This document shows, piece after piece, positions 2,945 to 13,226 of a DNA stretch of 13,226 nucleotides. The stretch is from the IMG/VR virus record IMGVR_UViG_2698536480_000007. One strand, written 5' to 3'. Made by a program: the position numbers and the translations under genes. The notes beneath the pieces were generated by a model, which was not told where the DNA came from, made no database searches, and saw nothing but the letters and a program-made list of their open reading frames with translations. Position 1 is the first letter of the stretch; every line of letters begins with the position of its first letter. This stretch comes from a virus. Its lineage: Duplodnaviria; Heunggongvirae; Uroviricota; Caudoviricetes.

Positions 2945-3289
2945 ATGACTCAAAACTATGAACTGATTGTGAAAGGGATCCGCAATTTTGAGAATAAAGT
3001 TACGGTAACTTTAGCGTTACGGGACAAAAAACGCTTTGACGGTGAAATTTTAGACCTGGACATCTCGCTGGACCGTGTTGAAGGTGCCGCGCTGGAGTTT
3101 TATGAGGCAGCAGCCAGAAGGAGCATCAGACAGGTCTTCCTGGATGTTGCTGCCGGGTTATGTGAAGGGGATGAGCAGTCACCGGAAAAGCGCCCCATAA
3201 TTTTAGAGGCGCAGGGTGTGTGGATAACCTACAAAGGAAAACTGCCGGGAAGAATTACTGGTTCACTGAAGACTCCGCCGAAATGGTAA
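2945..3289 (+). CDS. YdfR-like protein of unknown function (DUF1327-type, the kind found between holin and endolysin in Qin-type cassettes)
   Basis: 114 aa starting MTQNYELIVKGIRNFENKVTV...LEFYEAAARRS, recalled as YdfR-like. SD GGGGAGAG with ATG 5 nt after the holin stop (translational coupling). The C-terminal ~35 aa look atypical and overlap a convergent ORF. Confidence 0.55.
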   Translation: MTQNYELIVKGIRNFENKVTVTLALRDKKRFDGEILDLDISLDRVEGAALEFYEAAARRSIRQVFLDVAAGLCEGDEQSPEKRPIILEAQGVWITYKGKLPGRITGSLKTPPKW

Positions 3290-3527
3290 TTTCACCAGCA
3301 TATTTTTCTTCCAGTAATACCGCCAGCCACTTGAAAGAATTTTGTTGTTGCTGGGACCATTTGGGGTTGAGTGATTCAAGCTGGAGCGATGCCAGTGTTG
3401 GTTGCATTTGTTCCTTGGGAATTGAGAATGCCAGATATGAAAATGCGACAGTAAGGGCATTTACATCATCCCGAAGCTTGGAAATGCAGTCGAGCAACTC
3501 CTGTAGAGAAATGGTGCTATTGTCCAT
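3255..3527 (-). CDS. hypothetical small protein, convergent antisense gene in the holin-endolysin gap
   Basis: 90 aa from ATG (minus strand, + coords 3525-3527), preceded by AGAGAGGA with 6-7 nt spacer. Upstream on the minus strand are TTGAAT and TAAATA hexamers with 15-bp spacing. Fills a 343-bp gap that has no + strand gene. A chance ORF of this length is not excluded. Confidence 0.3.
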   Translation of the reverse strand: MDNSTISLQELLDCISKLRDDVNALTVAFSYLAFSIPKEQMQPTLASLQLESLNPKWSQQQQNSFKWLAVLLEEKYAGEITISAESSVNQ

Positions 3528-3632
3528 AAACAATCCTCTCTATTGTATTTAACTATTCCTTGCCTGATTCAACAGGCCGGGACAGATAAACATATCCAGG
3601 GTTCAGAAACCGATAAATCCTGATAAATATCC

Positions 3633-4166
3633 ATGAACGCAAAAATCAGATACGGCCTGTCGGCTGCCGTTCTGGCACTGATTGCCGTCGGTGCGCCTGC
3701 GCCTGATATTCTCGACCAGTTTCTGGATGAAAAAGAAGGTAACCACACAACGGCATACCGCGATGGTTCCGGCATCTGGACCATCTGTCGTGGTGCCACA
3801 ATGGTGGATGGTAAGCCCGTCATACCGGGAATGAGGCTGTCGAAGGAAAAATGCGACCAGGTTAACGCTATTGAACGTGATAAGGCGCTGGCATGGGTGG
3901 AGCGCAATATTAAAGTACCACTGACCGAACCACAGAAAGCGGGTATAGCGTCATTTTGTCCCTATAACATTGGCCCCGGTAAGTGTTTCCCGTCGACGTT
4001 TTATAAGCGGCTGAATGCCGGTGATCGTAAAGGTGCATGCGAGGCGATTCGCTGGTGGATAAAAGATGGTGGGCGCGATTGCCGCATACGTTCAAATAAC
4101 TGCTATGGACAGGTTATTCGTCGTGACCAGGAAAGCGCATTAGCCTGTTGGGGGATAGATCAGTGA
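3633..4166 (+). CDS. endolysin, GH24 T4-lysozyme-like with N-terminal SAR / signal-anchor-type segment
   Basis: 177 aa. Weakly hydrophobic Ala/Gly-rich N-terminus ([17 protein letters not shown]), then catalytic E-x8-D-x5-T triad ([16 protein letters not shown]). Partnered with a pinholin as in phage 21. Confidence 0.85.
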
Positions 4167-4627
4167 GCAGAGTCGCCGCGATTATTTATGCTCTGGTTAT
4201 CTGCATCATCGTCTGCCTGTCATGGGCTGTTAATCATTACCGTGATAACGCCACCGCCTACAAAGAGCAGCGCGACAAAAATGCCAGAGAACTGAAGCTG
4301 GCGAACGCGGCAATTACTGACATGCAGATGCGTCAGCGTGATGTTGCTGCGCTCGATGCAAAATACACGAAGGAGTTAGCTGATGCGAAAGCTGAAAATG
4401 ATGCTCTGCGTGATGATGTTGCCGCTGGTCGTCGTCGGTTGCACATCAAAGCAGTCTGTCAGTCAGTGCGTGAAGCCACCACCGCCTCCGGCGTGGATAA
4501 TGCAGCCTCCCCCCGACTGGCAGACACCGCTGAACGGGATTATTTCACCCTCCGGGAACGACTGGTAATGATGCAGGCCCAACTTGAAGGTGCTCAGCAA
4601 TACATAACCGAACAGTGTTTAAAGTAA
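4163..4627 (+). CDS. Rz: i-spanin Rz (lambda-type)
   Basis: [30 protein letters not shown]... matches lambda Rz closely through the central region from memory. GTG 4163 overlaps the endolysin stop TGA 4164-4166; the ORF-track start TTG 4148 is the alternative. N-terminal TM segment followed by a coiled-coil region. Confidence 0.85.
4383..4568 (+). CDS. Rz1: o-spanin Rz1 lipoprotein, embedded in Rz in the +1 frame
   Basis: 61 aa [24 protein letters not shown]...: lipobox LVVVGC, Pro-rich periplasmic part, near-identical to lambda Rz1 from memory. Confidence 0.8.
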
Positions 4628-4764
4628 AATCTTAACTACAATATGATTCATTTTGATGATTGTTTCATAAGGAACAGTGAAGTAAGATCTAAGAGGAGTT
4701 AAATTTTATACAGTATAATCATAATATTGCAGCAAGGTGGTTATAATTGAAAGAATATTTAGAT

Positions 4765-6222
4765 ATGAATACATCTCATGTAAGAGTTGTTACTCATATG
4801 TGTGGGTTCCTGGTTTGGCTCTATAGTCTTTCAATGTTGCCACCAATGGTTGTAGCATTGTTTTATAAAGAAAAAAGCCTGTTCGTTTTCTTTATAACTT
4901 TCGTTATATTTTTTTGTATTGGTGGCGGAGCGTGGTATACAACTAAGAAATCTGGCATTCAATTACGTACCCGTGATGGGTTTATTATAATTGTAATGTT
5001 TTGGATTTTGTTTTCTGTTATTAGTGCATTCCCTTTATGGATTGACTCAGAACTTAATTTAACGTTCATTGATGCTCTGTTTGAAGGGGTTTCTGGAATA
5101 ACAACAACAGGAGCAACTGTAATTGATGATGTTAGTTCATTACCTCGGGCATATTTGTACTATCGGTCACAGTTAAATTTTATAGGTGGTTTAGGAGTTA
5201 TTGTTCTGGCGGTTGCTGTATTGCCATTATTGGGTATTGGTGGTGCAAAGCTTTATCAGTCAGAAATGCCGGGGCCATTTAAGGATGACAAACTCACTCC
5301 CCGCCTGGCCGATACGTCACGGACACTGTGGATAACTTATTCTTTATTAGGTATTGCTTGTATTGTCTGTTATAGACTTGCAGGAATGCCTTTGTTTGAT
5401 GCTATTTGTCACGGGATTTCCACAGTTTCGCTTGGTGGTTTCTCAACTCATAGCGAGAGTATCGGATATTTTAATAACTATTTGGTTGAGCTGGTGGCTG
5501 GTTCTTTTTCCCTGCTATCGGCTTTCAACTTCACTCTTTGGTATATTGTTATTAGCAGGAAAACGATAAAACCTTTAATCAGAGATATTGAACTTCGTTT
5601 CTTTCTGTTAATAGCCTTAGGGGTGATCATTGTTACCTCTTTCCAGGTCTGGCATATAGGTATGTATGACTTGCATGGAAGTTTTATTCATTCGTTTTTT
5701 CTTGCCAGCTCCATGCTCACTGATAATGGTTTAGCTACGCAGGATTATGCAAGCTGGCCCACGCACACGATAGTGTTTTTGCTGTTGTCAAGTTTCTTTG
5801 GGGGATGTATAGGTTCAACTTGTGGTGGAATTAAGTCACTTCGATTTCTTATACTTTTCAAACAAAGCAAACACGAGATAAATCAGCTTTCTCATCCCAG
5901 AGCGTTGTTGAGTGTAAATGTAGGAGGGAAGATAGTTACAGATCGTGTAATGAGGTCTGTATGGAGTTTCTTTTTTCTTTATACTCTCTTCACGGTGTTT
6001 TTTATACTGGTGTTAAATGGTATGGGATATGATTTTCTTACATCATTTGCAACAGTGGCTGCATGTATTAATAATATGGGATTAGGTTTTGGGGCTACTG
6101 CATCGTCATTCGGAGTGCTTAATGACATTGCAAAATATTTAATGTGCATAGCTATGATTCTTGGTCGCCTTGAAATTTATCCTGTTATTATATTGTTTTC
6201 AGGTTTTTTTTGGCGCTCCTAA
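4765..6222 (+). CDS. trkG: TrkG/TrkH-family potassium uptake transporter
   Basis: 485 aa from ATG 4765 (MNTSHVRVVTHMCGF...), multi-pass membrane protein with repeated GxG selectivity-filter-like segments (GISGITTTGAT, GIGGAK, SLGGFST, GLGFGAT). Matches K-12 Rac TrkG as recalled. A TTG at 4747 with better SD spacing is an alternative start. The gene is visibly AT-rich relative to its flanks. Confidence 0.85.
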   Translation: MNTSHVRVVTHMCGFLVWLYSLSMLPPMVVALFYKEKSLFVFFITFVIFFCIGGGAWYTTKKSGIQLRTRDGFIIIVMFWILFSVISAFPLWIDSELNLTFIDALFEGVSGITTTGATVIDDVSSLPRAYLYYRSQLNFIGGLGVIVLAVAVLPLLGIGGAKLYQSEMPGPFKDDKLTPRLADTSRTLWITYSLLGIACIVCYRLAGMPLFDAICHGISTVSLGGFSTHSESIGYFNNYLVELVAGSFSLLSAFNFTLWYIVISRKTIKPLIRDIELRFFLLIALGVIIVTSFQVWHIGMYDLHGSFIHSFFLASSMLTDNGLATQDYASWPTHTIVFLLLSSFFGGCIGSTCGGIKSLRFLILFKQSKHEINQLSHPRALLSVNVGGKIVTDRVMRSVWSFFFLYTLFTVFFILVLNGMGYDFLTSFATVAACINNMGLGFGATASSFGVLNDIAKYLMCIAMILGRLEIYPVIILFSGFFWRS

Positions 6223-6308
6223 TATATGGCTGATTTATAATTGTGAGTTTAATATTATGTTGACTCACTCATTGATCCAATACCTAACTTTACCAGCAAC
6301 ACCTCCGC

Positions 6309-6340
6309 CCCCAGTAGCACTGGCTGCTGGGGTGCGTTTT
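6309..6340 (+). terminator. intrinsic terminator downstream of trkG
   Basis: 10-bp stem CCCCAGTAGC (6309-6318) / GCTGCTGGGG (6323-6332) with one G-U pair, loop ACTG, followed by TGCGTTTTATT. Confidence 0.5.
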
Positions 6341-6359
6341 ATTCATAAAGCAAGGATGT

Positions 6360-7151
6360 ATGAGCGAGAAATTAAAGATAGTCTATCGCCCATTACAAGA
6401 ATTGTCACCGTATGCGCACAACGCCAGGACGCACAGCCCTGAGCAGGTGGCACAACTGGTAGAAAGTATTAAGCAATTCGGCTGGACTAATCCGGTGCTG
6501 ATTGACGAAAAGGGCGAAATTATTGCGGGTCACGGTCGTGTTATGGCGGCTGAAATGCTCAAAATGGATTCTGTTCCGGTCATTGTTCTGTCTGGCCTGA
6601 CGGATGAGCAGAAAAAGGCGTACCGCCTGGCAGATAATCGCCTGCCGATGAATGCTGGCTGGGATGAAGATCTGTTGCGGATGGAGCTGTCGGACCTAAT
6701 CAATGCTGATTTTGATGTCTCCCTGACAGGCTTCATCCCGACAGAAATTGATGAACTGTTGACGGATGTTTTGCCCGGTACAGGAAATGAGGAGGAGCCG
6801 TATACGACGAAAATTGATACGCCTGTTTATGAGCCGTCGGGCGGTAAACCGGATATCAGTGAACTGTACGACGATACGAAAACGCAGGAGCTGATCAGCC
6901 GGATACGTTCGGCTTCCCTTGAGCCTGATATTGAGAAATTCCTCCTGTGTGCGGCAGAACGTCACACGGTGTTTAATTTCAGCAGAATTGCGGACTATTA
7001 CGCTCACGCCCCCGCTGAAATTCAGTGTTTTTTCGAGGAGTCGGCGCTGGTGATCATTGATTATCAGCAGGCTATTGAAAATGGATTTGTCCGGATGACG
7101 CAGCGCATGGTGGAGATCATGCATGGTGGTGAGGAGGAGGAATATGCGTGA
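6360..7151 (+). CDS. ParB-like nuclease-domain protein (ParB/Srx N-terminal-type domain plus unassigned acidic C-terminal region)
   Basis: 263 aa. N-terminal region ...LQELSPYAHNARTHSPEQVAQLVESIKQFGWTNPVLIDEKGEIIAGHGRVMAAE... carries the G-H-G-R type signature of ParB-like domains. K-12 Rac has a short ynaK fragment at this position (from memory). Ends in an EEEE tail whose codons form the SD for the next gene. Confidence 0.6.
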   Translation: MSEKLKIVYRPLQELSPYAHNARTHSPEQVAQLVESIKQFGWTNPVLIDEKGEIIAGHGRVMAAEMLKMDSVPVIVLSGLTDEQKKAYRLADNRLPMNAGWDEDLLRMELSDLINADFDVSLTGFIPTEIDELLTDVLPGTGNEEEPYTTKIDTPVYEPSGGKPDISELYDDTKTQELISRIRSASLEPDIEKFLLCAAERHTVFNFSRIADYYAHAPAEIQCFFEESALVIIDYQQAIENGFVRMTQRMVEIMHGGEEEEYA

Positions 7152-8076
7152 TGATTTTTGCGCCTTTATTCTGACTCACGGGCGACCGGACAAAGTTCTG
7201 ACTTACCGAACGTTGCGTCGTGCTGGCTATACCGGGAAAATTTTTATCGTTGTTGATGATGAAGATAAGACACGGCATCAGTACATGGCTGAATTTGGTG
7301 AACAGGTGCTGGTGTTTTCCAAAACCGATATCGCCAGTCGTTTTGACGAAGCCGATAATTTCTGTGACCGCCGCTCAATTTTTTACGCCCGTAATGCCTG
7401 TTTCGACCTGGCAAAACTGGTCGGGTGTAAATACTTCATTCAGCTCGATGATGATTATCACGAGTTCCAGTTTCGGGTGGATCGCAACTATGACCAGGCC
7501 TATTTTCCGATAAGGAAACTGGATGCGATCCTTTCTGAAATGCTGGCGTACTACGAATCAATACCTGCTCTTTCCATCGCTATGTCGCAGGGCGGGGATT
7601 TTCTTGGTGACAATGGCGGCCATGCTTCGTGGGTGAAACGCAAGGCAATGAACAGCTTTATCTGTTCGGTTGATCGACCGTTCTCATTCATGGGGCGCAT
7701 TAACGAGGATGTGAATACGTACACGAATCTCGGTCGCTGTGGTGAATTGTTTATGACGATCGGTGCTGTCCAGTTAGGGCAGAAACAGACGCAGAAAAAC
7801 AGCGGCGGAATGACCGAGCTGTATCTGGATTCCGGAACCTACGTTAAAAGTTTTTACTCCGTCATGTATGCGCCGTCGTGCGTAAAAATTTCACTGATGG
7901 GTGCCAGCCATAAACGCATTCACCATCAGGTCACCTGGAACAACGCTGCAGTAAAAATCCTTCACGAAAAATACAGGAAGAAGACACCCTGCATATCAAT
8001 GGGGGTGACAAATGATTCCGTATTCGAAAGTCGAGTCTCTGGCAGCGTGCCGGATGACTGCACAACAAATCGCTGA
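7144..8076 (+). CDS. hypothetical protein with GT-A-fold glycosyltransferase-like motif pattern (YdaY-position protein)
   Basis: 310 aa from ATG 7144, preceded by GAGGAGGAGG and overlapping the upstream ORF by 8 nt. Motifs AFILTHGRPD, IFIVVDDED, FIQLDDDY (DxD-like) and GRINEDVN fit the order seen in nucleotide-sugar transferases. No TM segments. Assignment from motif pattern only. The last ~25 aa look non-protein-like. Confidence 0.45.
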   Translation: MRDDFCAFILTHGRPDKVLTYRTLRRAGYTGKIFIVVDDEDKTRHQYMAEFGEQVLVFSKTDIASRFDEADNFCDRRSIFYARNACFDLAKLVGCKYFIQLDDDYHEFQFRVDRNYDQAYFPIRKLDAILSEMLAYYESIPALSIAMSQGGDFLGDNGGHASWVKRKAMNSFICSVDRPFSFMGRINEDVNTYTNLGRCGELFMTIGAVQLGQKQTQKNSGGMTELYLDSGTYVKSFYSVMYAPSCVKISLMGASHKRIHHQVTWNNAAVKILHEKYRKKTPCISMGVTNDSVFESRVSGSVPDDCTTNR

Positions 8077-8266: not shown

Positions 8267-9031
8267 ATGAGCAGACCGGACTGGGGGGCGTTGCAGCAGG
8301 AGTATATTGCTGAATACACCCGCTCCGGTATATCTCCGGTGGCATGGTGTGAAGCAAGGGGACTGAATTACGCAACAGCCCGTCGTTACATCAAAAAAAC
8401 TCCGAAAAATGCGCAGACAGAAATGCGCAAAACTGCGCAAAAAAGTGCGCAGAAAAAATCTGCGCAGACTGCACAAAAGCGGAACGAAAAATCTCAGGAA
8501 AAAAAGCCAGTATTCGATGCGGGCCTGAATGAGGGCGACGCGGAGGAATTTTCGTTCTGTCCCGATGAATTCGGCATTTCTGACCAGCAGGCTAAGTTTG
8601 CGATGCTTGTTGCTCAGGGTAAAAAGCCGACAGAGGCGTACCGACTAATGGGGCTTCGTGAAGAGATTCAGTCAGAGGTTGCCGCTGCTTTTGATGAGGA
8701 TTTAGCGGACGCCGTGAGTGATTTTTCTGGTTCTTACGTTACGCACCGGCACTGGGATCCTGTGACGGAAACTGGCGGCGAATCCACCGCAATCTATACC
8801 GGGCGAGGCGTGTTGACACGTTATAAGCTGGGCAGAATTGATGGGATTAATATTTTGCATGGTGACCTTAAATTAACCGCTCTGGTATGCGAGGTTACGG
8901 ATAAACCAGCTGTCGACCATATTATTGAGATTTATGATCCTGTATCAAGGCAGTTACAACGATACGAGGTAATTACAGCAAGTGTAGATCCTTCCGCATC
9001 AGTTTACTCTATCCAGTTAAGGAGAGCGTAA
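8267..9031 (+). CDS. chimeric ORF: terminase-small-subunit-like N-terminal region fused to a head-tail joining (adaptor)-like C-terminal region
   Basis: 254 aa. N-terminal HTH-like segments (SGISPVAWCEARGLNYATARRYIKK and ISDQQAKFAMLVAQGKKPTEAYRLMG) separated by a K/Q/A-rich linker. C-terminal ~95 aa (…HIIEIYDPVSRQLQRYEVITASVDPSASVYSIQLRRA) resembles head-tail adaptor proteins by pattern. Followed directly by tail genes with no terminase large subunit, portal or capsid ORFs. Confidence 0.45.
   Translation: MSRPDWGALQQEYIAEYTRSGISPVAWCEARGLNYATARRYIKKTPKNAQTEMRKTAQKSAQKKSAQTAQKRNEKSQEKKPVFDAGLNEGDAEEFSFCPDEFGISDQQAKFAMLVAQGKKPTEAYRLMGLREEIQSEVAAAFDEDLADAVSDFSGSYVTHRHWDPVTETGGESTAIYTGRGVLTRYKLGRIDGINILHGDLKLTALVCEVTDKPAVDHIIEIYDPVSRQLQRYEVITASVDPSASVYSIQLRRA
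8410..8475 (+). repeat. cluster of palindromic TGCGCA hexamers phased with A-tracts
   Basis: TGCGCA at 8410, 8424, 8434, 8446 and 8461 plus variant TGCACA at 8470, each preceded by A-runs. Encodes the linker ...NAQTEMRKTAQKSAQKKSAQTAQK. Confidence 0.6.
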
Positions 9032-10837: not shown

Positions 10838-11299
10838 ATGAGGTTATGGATGTTTATTCTTAATCAGAAAATTATCATTGGTGGAGAACGCTGGTTTACG
10901 CCAATGAAGGACTTAAAACCTGTAGACGGGTTAAAACTGTTGGTGGCAAGCAGCGATAACGATCAGTATCGCTCCCGTAATGCATTAATCCGTCGCCACA
11001 TTGAGAAAATGGATGCCAGTTTGCACGTCGGAACGAAGGAGTTTGATATTTCAAAGGTTTCCGAGGTGGATTCTGTTGATGATTTACTCATTGATAATGC
11101 CGCTCGTTATCTGCTGAAAGACTGGAAAGGGGTTGGTGAACTGGTTAATGGTGTTGAGGTTGCACTGGAATATACGGCAGAACGAGGGATCGCGCTGCTT
11201 AAGCAGAATCCAGAGTTGTACTGGCAGATCCTTGCAGAAGCAGCCAGCATCGCCCAGGGTAAAGAGCAGCAGAAGCAGGATACGATAAAAAAGCCATAG
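10838..11299 (+). CDS. tail assembly chaperone (lambda gpG analogue)
   Basis: 153-aa acidic protein ending ...DTIKKP with the slippery heptamer A-AAA-AAG (11287-11293) two codons before its stop. Start could instead be an internal Met. Confidence 0.6.
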   Translation: MRLWMFILNQKIIIGGERWFTPMKDLKPVDGLKLLVASSDNDQYRSRNALIRRHIEKMDASLHVGTKEFDISKVSEVDSVDDLLIDNAARYLLKDWKGVGELVNGVEVALEYTAERGIALLKQNPELYWQILAEAASIAQGKEQQKQDTIKKP

Positions 11300-11607
11300 C
11301 TGCCCAGCGGTGGTTATCGGAGTTCGGGGGAGAAAGGGGGGAAAAGGCAAGATGGAAGCGAGAAAAACTCAGGTTGCCACCGATACCGGAACCAGAAATA
11401 GACCCGGTGCTTAAGGAGTTGTTGTACGCCTATTCGGTAATATCCCGTGCCCGACGTTATGCTGGAATGGCTGGGGTGCCTTTGCCTTTATCTCTGACAG
11501 AGATAAATGAATATTTAGCCACTCATCCGGTATTGATTGAGCGCGATGAATTTGAAGCAGTGATCTTTGCACTGGATGACCAGTATTTTCAGGAGCAGTG
11601 TGTGTAG
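10838..11607 (+). CDS. tail assembly chaperone GT-like fusion made by programmed -1 ribosomal frameshift
   Basis: The -1 frame is open from 11263 to the stop at 11605-11607. Slipping at A-AAA-AAG (11287-11293) continues ...KK-AIAAQRWLSEFGGERGEKARWKREKLRLPPIPEPE... to 11607. The ORF-track ORF 11374-11607 is the tail of this extension. Confidence 0.5.
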
Positions 11608-11727
11608 TTGTTAATTACGTACACTCTGTTACAGAGATGTGATGGTGTCTTTAATTAAATCGATGATGCTCCTGGAGAAAAGCATTGCGTGGCCTCGTAA
11701 TCGCTATATCTACTATTATGTCGCCTG

Positions 11728-11753
11728 AAACCCACTTCGCGGTGGGTTTTTTG
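11728..11753 (+). terminator. intrinsic terminator-like hairpin between chaperone genes and the next ORF
   Basis: Stem AAACCCAC (11728-11735) / GTGGGTTT (11742-11749), loop TTCGCG, then TTTTGTTG. Confidence 0.45.
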
Positions 11754-11772
11754 TTGTCAGGAGTTTTAATAA

Positions 11773-12642
11773 ATGGCAGAGCAAACCTCGCGTCTCGCAA
11801 TAATTATTGATAGCACTGGAGCGAAAAATAATGCTGACAATCTGACCTCCTCATTAGTCAAAATGACGCAGGCTGGGGAAACTGCTGCAAATAGCGCAGG
11901 GAAAGTGACTAAGGCAACAGAAGATGAGAAGAACGCGCTCGCAAAATTAAAAGCAGCTATTGATCCAGTTGGTGCCGCAATTGATACTGTCGGTCGACGC
12001 TATTCTGAATTAAAGAAATTTTTCGATAAAGGGCTTATTGATAAAGAAGAATATGAATTTCTTGTCCGTAAACTTAATGAAACCACAGAGGAATTGAGCG
12101 GGGTTGCGCAAGCGCAGAGAGAAGCCGAGAAGGCCGGAAAACTTGCTGCCGCCCAGCAGGAAGCGCAGGCTCAGGCCTTTCAAAGAATGCTGGACAAGAT
12201 CGACCCTCTGGCTGCGGCGCTAAGAAATCTTGAACAACAGCATGATGAACTTAATGCTGCGTTTGCATCCGGGAAAATAAATGGTTCTCAGTTTGAGAAT
12301 TATAGCCGAAAAATACAGGAAACACGGCGAGAGCTTACCGGAGAGGCTCAGGCAGAGCGAGAAGCAGCAAAAGCGCATGATGAACAGGTTGTTGCTTTGC
12401 AACGTCTGATTGGTCTGGGCATTGGCACGATGGCGAATACGAACTCTGCTGGCGCGCATACCCACTCACTGTCCGGCACTGCTGCAAGCGCAGGTGCACA
12501 CGCACATACTGTCGGTATTGGTGCTCATACGCACTCCGTTGCGATTGGTTCACATGGACACACCATCACCGTTAACGCTGCTGGTAACGCGGAAAACACC
12601 GTCAAAAACATCGCATTTAACTATATTGTGAGGCTTGCATAA
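11773..12642 (+). CDS. chimeric ORF: tape-measure-like N-terminal coiled-coil region fused in frame to the C-terminal receptor-binding tip of a lambda Stf-type side tail fibre
   Basis: 289 aa. N-terminus [20 protein letters not shown]... and helical Q/A/E-rich repeats fit a tape-measure N-terminus and position. The last ~65 aa ([66 protein letters not shown]) match the lambda Stf / T4 gp37-type HxH tip from memory. Stop TAA 12640-12642 overlaps the tfa ATG. Confidence 0.55.
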
Positions 12643-13226
12643 TGGCATTCAGAATGAGTGAACAACCACGGACCATAAAAATTTATAATCTGCTGGCCGG
12701 AACTAATGAATTTATTGGTGAAGGTGATGCATATATTCCGCCTCATACAGGTCTGCCAGCAAACAGTACCGATATTGCACCGCCAGATATTCCGGCAGGC
12801 TTCGTGGCTGTTTTCAACAGTGATGAGTCATCGTGGCATCTCGTTGAAGATCATCGGGGTAAAACGGTTTATGACGTGGCTTCCGGCGACGCGTTATTTA
12901 TTTCTGAACTCGGTCCGTTACCGGAAAATGTTACCTGGTTATCGCCGGAAGGGGAGTTTCAGAAGTGGAACGGCACAGCCTGGGTGAAGGATACGGAAGC
13001 AGAAAAACTGTTCCGGATCCGGGAGGCGGAAGAAACAAAAAACAACCTGATGCAGGTAGCCAGTGAGCATATTGCGCCGCTTCAGGATGCTGCAGATCTG
13101 GAAATTGCAACGGAGGAAGAAATCTCGTTGCTGGAAGCATGGAAAAAGTATCGGGTATTGCTGAACCGTGTTGATACGTCAACTGCACCTGATATTGAGT
13201 GGCCTACGAACCCTGTCAGGGAGTAA
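12642..13226 (+). CDS. tfa: tail fibre assembly protein Tfa (lambda-type)
   Basis: 194 aa [51 protein letters not shown]..., near-identical to lambda Tfa as recalled. Follows the Stf C-terminal tip. Confidence 0.85.

Follow-up and report, generated by a model that had tools for sequence, protein, structure and literature searches.

The trkG gene described here lies on a 13,226-nucleotide (nt) stretch of DNA from the viral record IMGVR_UViG_2698536480_000007 (Caudoviricetes), referred to below as the window, which represents a Rac-type lambdoid prophage. The gene order begins with DUF1367, DUF1364 and DUF1133/Q-like genes and two tRNAs, continues on the lysis side with a P21-type holin gene, a YdfR-family gene, a SAR-type lysozyme gene and Rz/Rz1, and then reaches trkG, which is followed by a ynaK-type ParB_N gene, a TAGT-like glycosyltransferase gene, a small-terminase remnant, tail genes and ydaY. 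Its neighbours in related genomes are recET/racR on one side and pinR/ompN on the other. An earlier interpretation made from the letters alone (the sequence-only reading) had placed trkG directly downstream of an intact Rz/Rz1 pair, in the slot of lambda bor, and this position was confirmed; bor itself lies directly 3' of Rz/Rz1. The coordinates of the features at the locus, and of the decay patterns of related prophages, are collected in Table 1.

Table 1. Features of the trkG locus and prophage-decay patterns around it (window positions)
Feature	Positions	Strand	Basis or remark
Rz (i-spanin of 154 aa); its GTG start overlaps the stop codon of the lysozyme gene; left border of the slot	4163..4627	+	Pfam PF03245
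Rz1 o-spanin lipoprotein, 61 aa, embedded in Rz in another frame	4383..4568	+	Identical to K-12-type rzoR; lipobox VVGC; proline-rich stretch
Cargo leader, AT-rich, with the presumed trkG promoter (sigma-70)	4628..4746	+	Composition; K-12 reporter fragment; Genomic SELEX
Exact TATAAT, best -10 candidate, without a good -35	4714..4719	+	Hexamer search
Shine-Dalgarno sequence AAGGTGG	4734..4740	+	6 nt before TTG 4747, 24 nt before annotated ATG 4765
trkG open reading frame	4747..6222 from TTG (491 aa); annotated ATG 4765 (485 aa)	+	Pfam TrkH, TIGR00933, PDB, K-12 comparison
AT-rich 3' trailer of the cargo	6223..6305	+	Composition; small hairpin 6243-6268 without T-run
Intrinsic-terminator-like hairpin (6306-6336) then TTTTATT; backbone, right border of the slot	6306..6343	+	Folding energy -25.2 kcal/mol, z -4.1
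Full-length ynaK-type ParB_N protein, 263 aa; first backbone gene after the slot	6360..7151	+	Pfam ParB_N 1.2e-06; 792-nt coding sequence in related loci L012 and L013
Decay in K-12	right-hand end point 6613		trkG intact
Decay in strain B	right-hand end point 6590		trkG intact
Decay in strain F11	end point 6394, fused to tail tube gene		Lambda-like bet/gam arm; trkG intact
Decay in strain STS63-2-E	end point 6537, beside type VI secretion system genes near cusS		trkG intact
Decay on conjugative plasmids (Klebsiella, Citrobacter, Enterobacter), remnants flanked by IS26			trkG intact

Identity of the gene and relation to the K-12 Rac locus

The trkG open reading frame (ORF) is open and full length, and the check for disabling mutations called for by the sequence-only reading revealed none. 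The encoded protein matches the Pfam TrkH family (PF02386) over residues 40–483 with an E-value of 3.7e-144 (481 bits, cut-off 27), passes the TIGR00933 cut-off of 331 with 414 bits and is matched end to end by the solved TrkH structures 3PJZ and 4J9U (4e-121). The TTTGA, SLGGFST, TDNGL and NNMGxG filter motifs and the gating loop GGCxGSTCGGIK are invariant in 12 aligned homologues, this protein included. A full-length profile match, four pore-loop repeats with their filter glycines and an intramembrane gating loop place the protein in the TrkH/TrkG family and, judged by these features, it is the K+-translocating membrane subunit of a Trk system. Against the NCBIfam TrkH equivalog NF008020 it reaches 451.6 bits, far under the cut-off of 866, and on this score it is therefore a TrkG paralogue and not a TrkH orthologue. 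With the core TrkH of Escherichia coli and the TrkH of Vibrio parahaemolyticus (3PJZ/4J9U) it shares the family, the fold class and the conserved selectivity-filter and gating-loop motifs. Unlike TrkH, it sits in a separate clade of TrkG-type proteins that is widespread in Enterobacterales, and the K+ uptake of TrkG depends on Na+, with some Na+ also being taken up (PMC9898762).

Over positions 4190 to 6613 the window and the K-12-type locus differ at 15 of 2424 nt (99.4% identity) and show the same gene order, and the tail-gene segment at 10948–12412 is 99.9% identical to K-12. This near-identity, together with the common order rzpR-rzoR-trkG-ynaK, identifies the Rac prophage trkG locus; the gene and its junctions are the same in both, and Rz1 and the region spanning the Shine-Dalgarno (SD) sequence, TTG and ATG are identical. 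K-12 retains only these two segments, with trkG placed between two deletions. Its Rz lacks the first 9–14 codons, depending on the start codon taken, the junction being at 4190, and only the first 87 codons of ynaK are left, to position 6613. The window, in contrast, has a full-length Rz, a 263-aa ynaK product, a holin and a lysozyme, along with deletions of its own in the head and tape-measure region. The sequence-only reading had described both K-12 spanin genes as degraded, which holds for the truncated Rz but not for Rz1 (rzoR), which is intact.

The trkG gene differs from that of K-12 by three synonymous changes and one changed codon, which leads to a single amino acid difference, Tyr458 in the window (6136–6138) and Cys458 in K-12. 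Tyr458 is the consensus of the family in the alignment of homologues. This residue is Tyr or Trp in the window, in strain B and in all distant homologues, and the Cys458 of K-12-type strains arises by two adjacent base changes (TAT to TGC); by this alignment, the Cys of the K-12 reference protein, located in the last transmembrane region, may be a derived state.

Composition, leader and borders of the trkG block

The block comprising trkG and its non-coding flanks (4628–6308) has a guanine-cytosine (GC) content of 0.368, compared with 0.479 for the rest of the window. For 1681-bp windows placed outside the block the GC content spans 0.440–0.496 (mean 0.473, standard deviation 0.012), which puts the block about 8.6 standard deviations below their mean. 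In a sliding window the GC content falls from 0.50–0.53 over lysozyme and Rz to 0.32–0.42 at about 4500–6300 and then rises to about 0.50. From its annotated ATG (4765–6222) trkG has a GC content of 0.380 and a third-codon-position GC (GC3) of 0.323, against a GC3 of 0.46–0.55 in the flanking genes, and both the leader (4628–4764, GC 0.255) and the trailer (6223–6308, GC 0.349) lie below trkG itself. The block is clearly foreign in composition, distinct from the neighbouring phage genes in the way a moron is in the sense of Hendrix and Juhala, and the calculation agrees with the greater AT-richness of trkG that had been judged by eye. The non-genic stretch at 1351–1800 is as AT-rich as the block (GC 0.35–0.36).

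The A/T-rich leader with TATAAT-like hexamers that had been noted upstream of trkG holds two exact TATAAT boxes, the second of them at 4742–4747. Their frequency is no more than expected by chance, with nine in the window against 7.5 expected, six of the nine lying inside the AT-rich block. A consensus promoter scan passed over both leader boxes for want of a -35 element and returned six sites, compared with 7.0 ± 2.3 in shuffled sequences. A promoter-like TTTAAA-18-TATGAT arrangement is present at 4618–4647, and a AGTATAAT box is found at a similar place upstream of the Escherichia fergusonii homologue. A 508-bp K-12 fragment, whose primers correspond to window positions ~4257–4764, drives a lux reporter (PMC9898762 supplement), and Genomic SELEX detected a constitutive RpoD promoter at trkG, which its authors took to mean that gene and promoter had entered Rac together (PMC5811629). 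Promoter activity of the equivalent K-12 fragment is documented by lux reporter, Genomic SELEX and quantitative reverse transcription PCR (PMC9898762, PMC5811629). The leader RNA folds no better than shuffled sequence (z 0.0), and a search of the cargo block with Rfam at gathering thresholds gave no match. A regulatory RNA in the block was considered and rejected, the only match under relaxed Rfam settings being that of an archaeal snoRNA (E 0.86), which is attributed to chance.

The strong SD sequence AAGGTGG described in the sequence-only reading is present, as the only occurrence of this motif in the window (1.4 expected by chance), yet by its spacing it pairs with TTG 4747 and not with the annotated ATG 4765 (Table 1). 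In the E. fergusonii homologue the corresponding register reads GGAGG-N5-TTG, and nucleotide homology between this gene and the window starts at 4742; the Citrobacter homologue has GGGGTG-N4-TTG, with CTG at the position of the E. coli ATG. Many homologues are 491 aa long and have a residue other than Met at the position of the E. coli Met1, and the region from the SD sequence through TTG to ATG is identical in nine of nine E. coli-type copies examined. From the SD spacing and the conservation of SD-TTG in the homologues we infer that TTG 4747 is probably the main start, yielding a TrkG of 491 aa, and the reference start codon would then probably lie 18 nt downstream of the true one.

The left border of the block is sharply defined, as the similarity to Rz genes of trkG-less phages ends right after the TAA stop codon (4625–4627). 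Rz itself matches PF03245 over profile positions 1–125 of 126 (8.5e-53) and carries the annotation 'lysis protein', with matching coordinates, in two related loci (L001 and L012). On the right, the trkG-less prophages of strains 0-4 and QML220601 (L003 and L014) are homologous to the window from 6292–6306 onward at about 92% identity. The common stretch includes the hairpin, the T-run, the ribosome-binding site of ynaK and the downstream genes, and in these two prophages the hairpin upstream of ynaK is weaker and the T-run longer than in the window. The hairpin of the window, with a GC-rich stem of 10–13 bp followed by UUUUAUU, agrees with the result of a terminator scan and is a predicted Rho-independent terminator. 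Because it is common to prophages that have no trkG, this terminator is, by comparison of the sequences, an element of the phage backbone that did not arrive with trkG, and the cargo extends from 4628 to about 6305. The terminator at 6309–6340 that the sequence-only reading had assigned to trkG as its own is therefore not part of the cargo. A search at the cargo borders for direct or inverted repeats of the kind left by transposition or site-specific insertion gave only short matches, as chance would produce in AT-rich DNA, and the insertion is thus not marked by flanking repeats.

The same slot, after the lysis genes, is occupied by other genes in the trkG-less prophages. An enterotoxin A-family gene and an enterotoxin B-like gene are found at 2460–3597 of L003 and at 2588–3722 of L014, and in further lambdoid prophages the slot holds either DUF1398 and YlcI or YfbU and an HNH endonuclease; the GC content of the cargoes of trkG-less phages is 0.39–0.45. 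Strain 0-4 also carries a subtilase-family AB5 toxin gene, eplA, further upstream. A joint proposal, in which TrkG starts at TTG 4747 (491 aa) and the stretch from the Rz stop to the hairpin is a site of cargo exchange with the hairpin as shared terminator, is put forward tentatively, at somewhat less than even chances. As part of it, unrelated AT-rich genes with effects on the host would alternate in the slot, trkG here and AB-type enterotoxin genes in strains 0-4 and QML220601. Lambda bor and other post-Rz morons resemble trkG in their place 3' of Rz/Rz1, their AT-rich deviant composition, their function in host physiology and, going by the K-12 data on trkG, their expression from a repressed prophage. 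As a difference, bor is read from the other strand and its product is a small lipoprotein, whereas trkG runs in the direction of the late operon over 1.5 kb, encodes a polytopic transporter and would use a backbone hairpin in place of its own terminator.

Distribution of trkG and decay of the prophage

At least 80% of the region 4100–6900 of the window is held by 1473 of 5426 complete E. coli genomes (~27%), and most of these carriers have the full Rz-trkG-ynaK form and not the deletions of K-12. The nine E. coli-type copies examined all have the same left junction, and the cassette is 99–100% identical across matches. These shared junctions and the high identity indicate, as far as sequence comparison goes, one ancestral capture followed by spread rather than repeated acquisition, so that the independent acquisition proposed in the sequence-only reading finds no support. 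Each of the nine copies is an open 485-aa ORF with 0–3 substitutions, in a sample that includes decayed, plasmid and more complete contexts, and the ratio of nonsynonymous to synonymous substitution rates (dN/dS) is 0.045 against the Escherichia albertii variant, which corresponds to purifying selection. At least five different patterns of prophage decay keep trkG intact (Table 1). Retention through independent deletions fits the benefit to the host for which the gene had been said to be maintained, a point already made in a survey of 154 genomes in which trkG and recE are the conserved rac genes (PMC5700373).

The Rz-trkG cassette was also seen, at 99.7% identity, on the IncA plasmid NZ_CP055012.1 of Klebsiella quasipneumoniae (L006, 6536–8595) and on 14 other plasmids. 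The hosts of these plasmids, several of which are conjugative, are Klebsiella, Citrobacter, Enterobacter and E. coli, and the cassette lies within a lambdoid prophage remnant near IS26. Its presence on plasmids of other genera implies that trkG has moved beyond E. coli chromosomes.

Outside this nearly identical cluster, the closest TrkG-type genes are considerably more divergent. The E. albertii protein has 88% amino acid identity (a partial match covering 74% of the query; 80% at the nucleotide level, with 1.1 synonymous substitutions per synonymous site, dS) and belongs to another lambdoid prophage carrying NleF. The E. fergusonii protein (79% identity, gene GC 0.424) is encoded on an island of the chromosome with the yedR and hchA regions on either side, and the Citrobacter protein (77% identity) by a gene with a GC content of 0.464; for both of these full-length genes dS is saturated. 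The three resemble the gene of the window in their 77–88% amino acid identity and, in E. fergusonii and Citrobacter, in the SD-TTG start, and differ from it in their contexts, their flanks and a GC content of 0.40–0.46. Nucleotide homology to all three stops at the borders of the ORF, from 4742/4766 to 6215/6226. E. albertii, E. fergusonii and Citrobacter were each rejected as the donor, being too distant (dS 1.1 or saturated), in unrelated contexts and without homology in the flanks.

Decay has also affected the prophage of the window. With the more complete Rac prophage of strain F5505-C1 (L001) as reference, 7.2 kb are deleted at 8646/8647, a loss that takes most of the small terminase gene along with the genes for the large terminase and the portal, minor head and capsid proteins, and similarity of the tape-measure gene to K-12 ynaA and to L001 ends at 12412, where the gene is truncated. 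Judged by this gene content, the prophage is defective and unable to package DNA. The less decayed context ascribed to trkG in the sequence-only reading thus applies to the lysis side, more complete than in K-12, and not to the head and tape-measure genes.

Several other features were observed along the prophage. The junction at 8646/8647 leaves a chimeric 254-aa ORF (8267–9031) without a Pfam match. Beyond 12412, within 11773–13226, the sequence resembles the arrangement of a hypothetical protein plus tfaR in strain Tig228, and an Rfam IS009 match of 221 bits (12985–13183) falls within the tfaR-like ORF. At 6360–8076 the ynaK-type protein (263 aa) overlaps a 317-aa protein, annotated as 'GREB1-related', that matches the TET-associated glycosyltransferase family PF20691 (3.3e-35); this pair, just upstream of the terminase genes, could form a DNA-modification or packaging-associated module. 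An ORF of 90–92 aa on the minus strand (3255–3533), between the YdfR-family and lysozyme genes, has its own ribosome-binding site, is named 'hypothetical protein' in related genomes and is a possible further cargo gene of small size. The roughly 1.3 kb that follow the Q-like DUF1133 gene (1351–2600) have no annotated protein gene and include tRNA-Thr(TGT) and tRNA-Gly(TCC) at 1795–1948, and this interval probably corresponds to the region of late promoter and tRNA genes that lambdoid phages typically have.

Origin and role of trkG

Taken together, the block from 4628 to about 6305 is very probably a prophage cargo, a moron, in which a foreign AT-rich gene of TrkG type was captured by an ancestor of the Rac-type lambdoid phages and is beneficial to the host. 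Several observations weigh against this assignment. The -35 elements are of low quality, and hexamers resembling promoters occur no more often than expected at random. The sole terminator-like site downstream belongs to the backbone, and without a terminator of its own the cargo misses the strict definition of a moron. No donor lineage was found, the nearest proteins outside the E. coli cluster being at 88% (partial), 79% and 77% identity, and among the matches examined there was no relative in which this Rz allele directly abuts the hairpin, as in an empty slot. Moreover, most of the decayed versions have retained the lysis genes as well, so that the retention of trkG could partly reflect hitch-hiking or a low deletion rate.

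The AT-richness of the block might alternatively be a by-product of a very hydrophobic membrane protein, through its Phe, Ile and Leu codons, with no foreign origin involved. The T-rich coding strand of trkG (AT skew -0.2 to -0.3) and the GC content at codon positions 1 and 2, which is also lowered (0.408, compared with 0.45–0.53), fit such an explanation. It is refuted, however, by the low GC3 of trkG relative to its flanks and by the non-coding leader and trailer, which are more AT-rich still, and the drop in GC content is therefore no side effect of coding for a hydrophobic protein. The sharp change of composition at the mosaic junctions is likewise against it, as is the GC content of 53% of the core paralogue trkH of E. 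coli (PMC9898762). The 38% of K-12 trkG, set against that value, and the location in rac are the classical arguments for a horizontal origin (PMC9898762), and a purely protein-driven bias retains practically no probability.

Two further explanations concern the benefit of the gene. Should trkG be of use mainly to the phage, it would be co-transcribed with the late operon and sustain K+, and hence translation and turgor, in the infected cell. The gene is co-directional with the Q-dependent late genes and placed between Rz and the packaging genes, so that the late transcript must cross it, in keeping with such a role. Nevertheless, trkG is intact in prophages incapable of forming particles (K-12, B, F11, STS63-2-E, the plasmid remnants and the window), and the gene is served by its own constitutive promoter and adds to the K+ supply of uninduced K-12 (PMC9898762, PMC5811629), which makes a mainly phage-serving role very unlikely. 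The gene might also be a neutral passenger, missed by the deletions by chance or hitch-hiking with selected neighbours, a view in line with the preservation of the adjoining lysis genes and with the role of TrkH as the main Trk transporter of K-12 (PMC9898762). Such neutrality is hardly credible for an ORF that is intact in all nine architectures with 0–3 amino acid changes, that shows the low dN/dS given above against the E. albertii allele and three synonymous changes to one changed codon against K-12, and that is left whole by at least four right-hand deletion end points (6394, 6537, 6590 and 6613), all of which stop short of it. A measurable contribution of TrkG to K+ uptake, as published (PMC9898762), also speaks against neutrality.

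For the captured, host-beneficial cargo the following course of events can be outlined. An ancestor of the Rac-type lambdoid phages would have captured the AT-rich gene of a TrkG-type K+ transporter in the slot that separates the lysis cassette, made up of holin, SAR lysozyme and Rz/Rz1, from the packaging and structural genes, a module that opens with the hairpin and the ynaK-type ParB gene. In the lysogen, a constitutive sigma-70 promoter within the trkG leader would drive transcription of the gene under partial repression by H-NS, as shown in K-12, where H-NS and StpA lower trkG transcription without silencing it (PMC9898762). Translation would most probably start at the SD-TTG at 4747, and the transcripts would probably end at the backbone hairpin (6306–6343), leaving the late structural genes silent. 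Placed in the inner membrane, TrkG would act with the host proteins TrkA and SapD as a second, Na+-dependent Trk system for K+ uptake, as has been shown for the K-12 protein, whose K+ uptake depends on TrkA and SapD and contributes to the K+ supply of the cell (PMC9898762). During lytic growth, the Q-antiterminated late transcript would need to read through trkG and the hairpin. The benefit to the host would finally keep trkG intact while the surrounding phage genes are lost, as the comparative data suggest.

The description of trkG as a low-GC, H-NS-modulated cargo of Rac that has its own promoter and is conserved across E. coli is already published. To this the present analysis adds the exact borders of the cargo, the assignment of the terminator to the backbone, a probable start codon 18 nt upstream of the annotated one and a catalogue of the independent decay patterns that spare trkG. 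These additions have little significance beyond annotation; they are of use for annotating Rac-type prophages and wherever trkG is taken as an example of prophage domestication.

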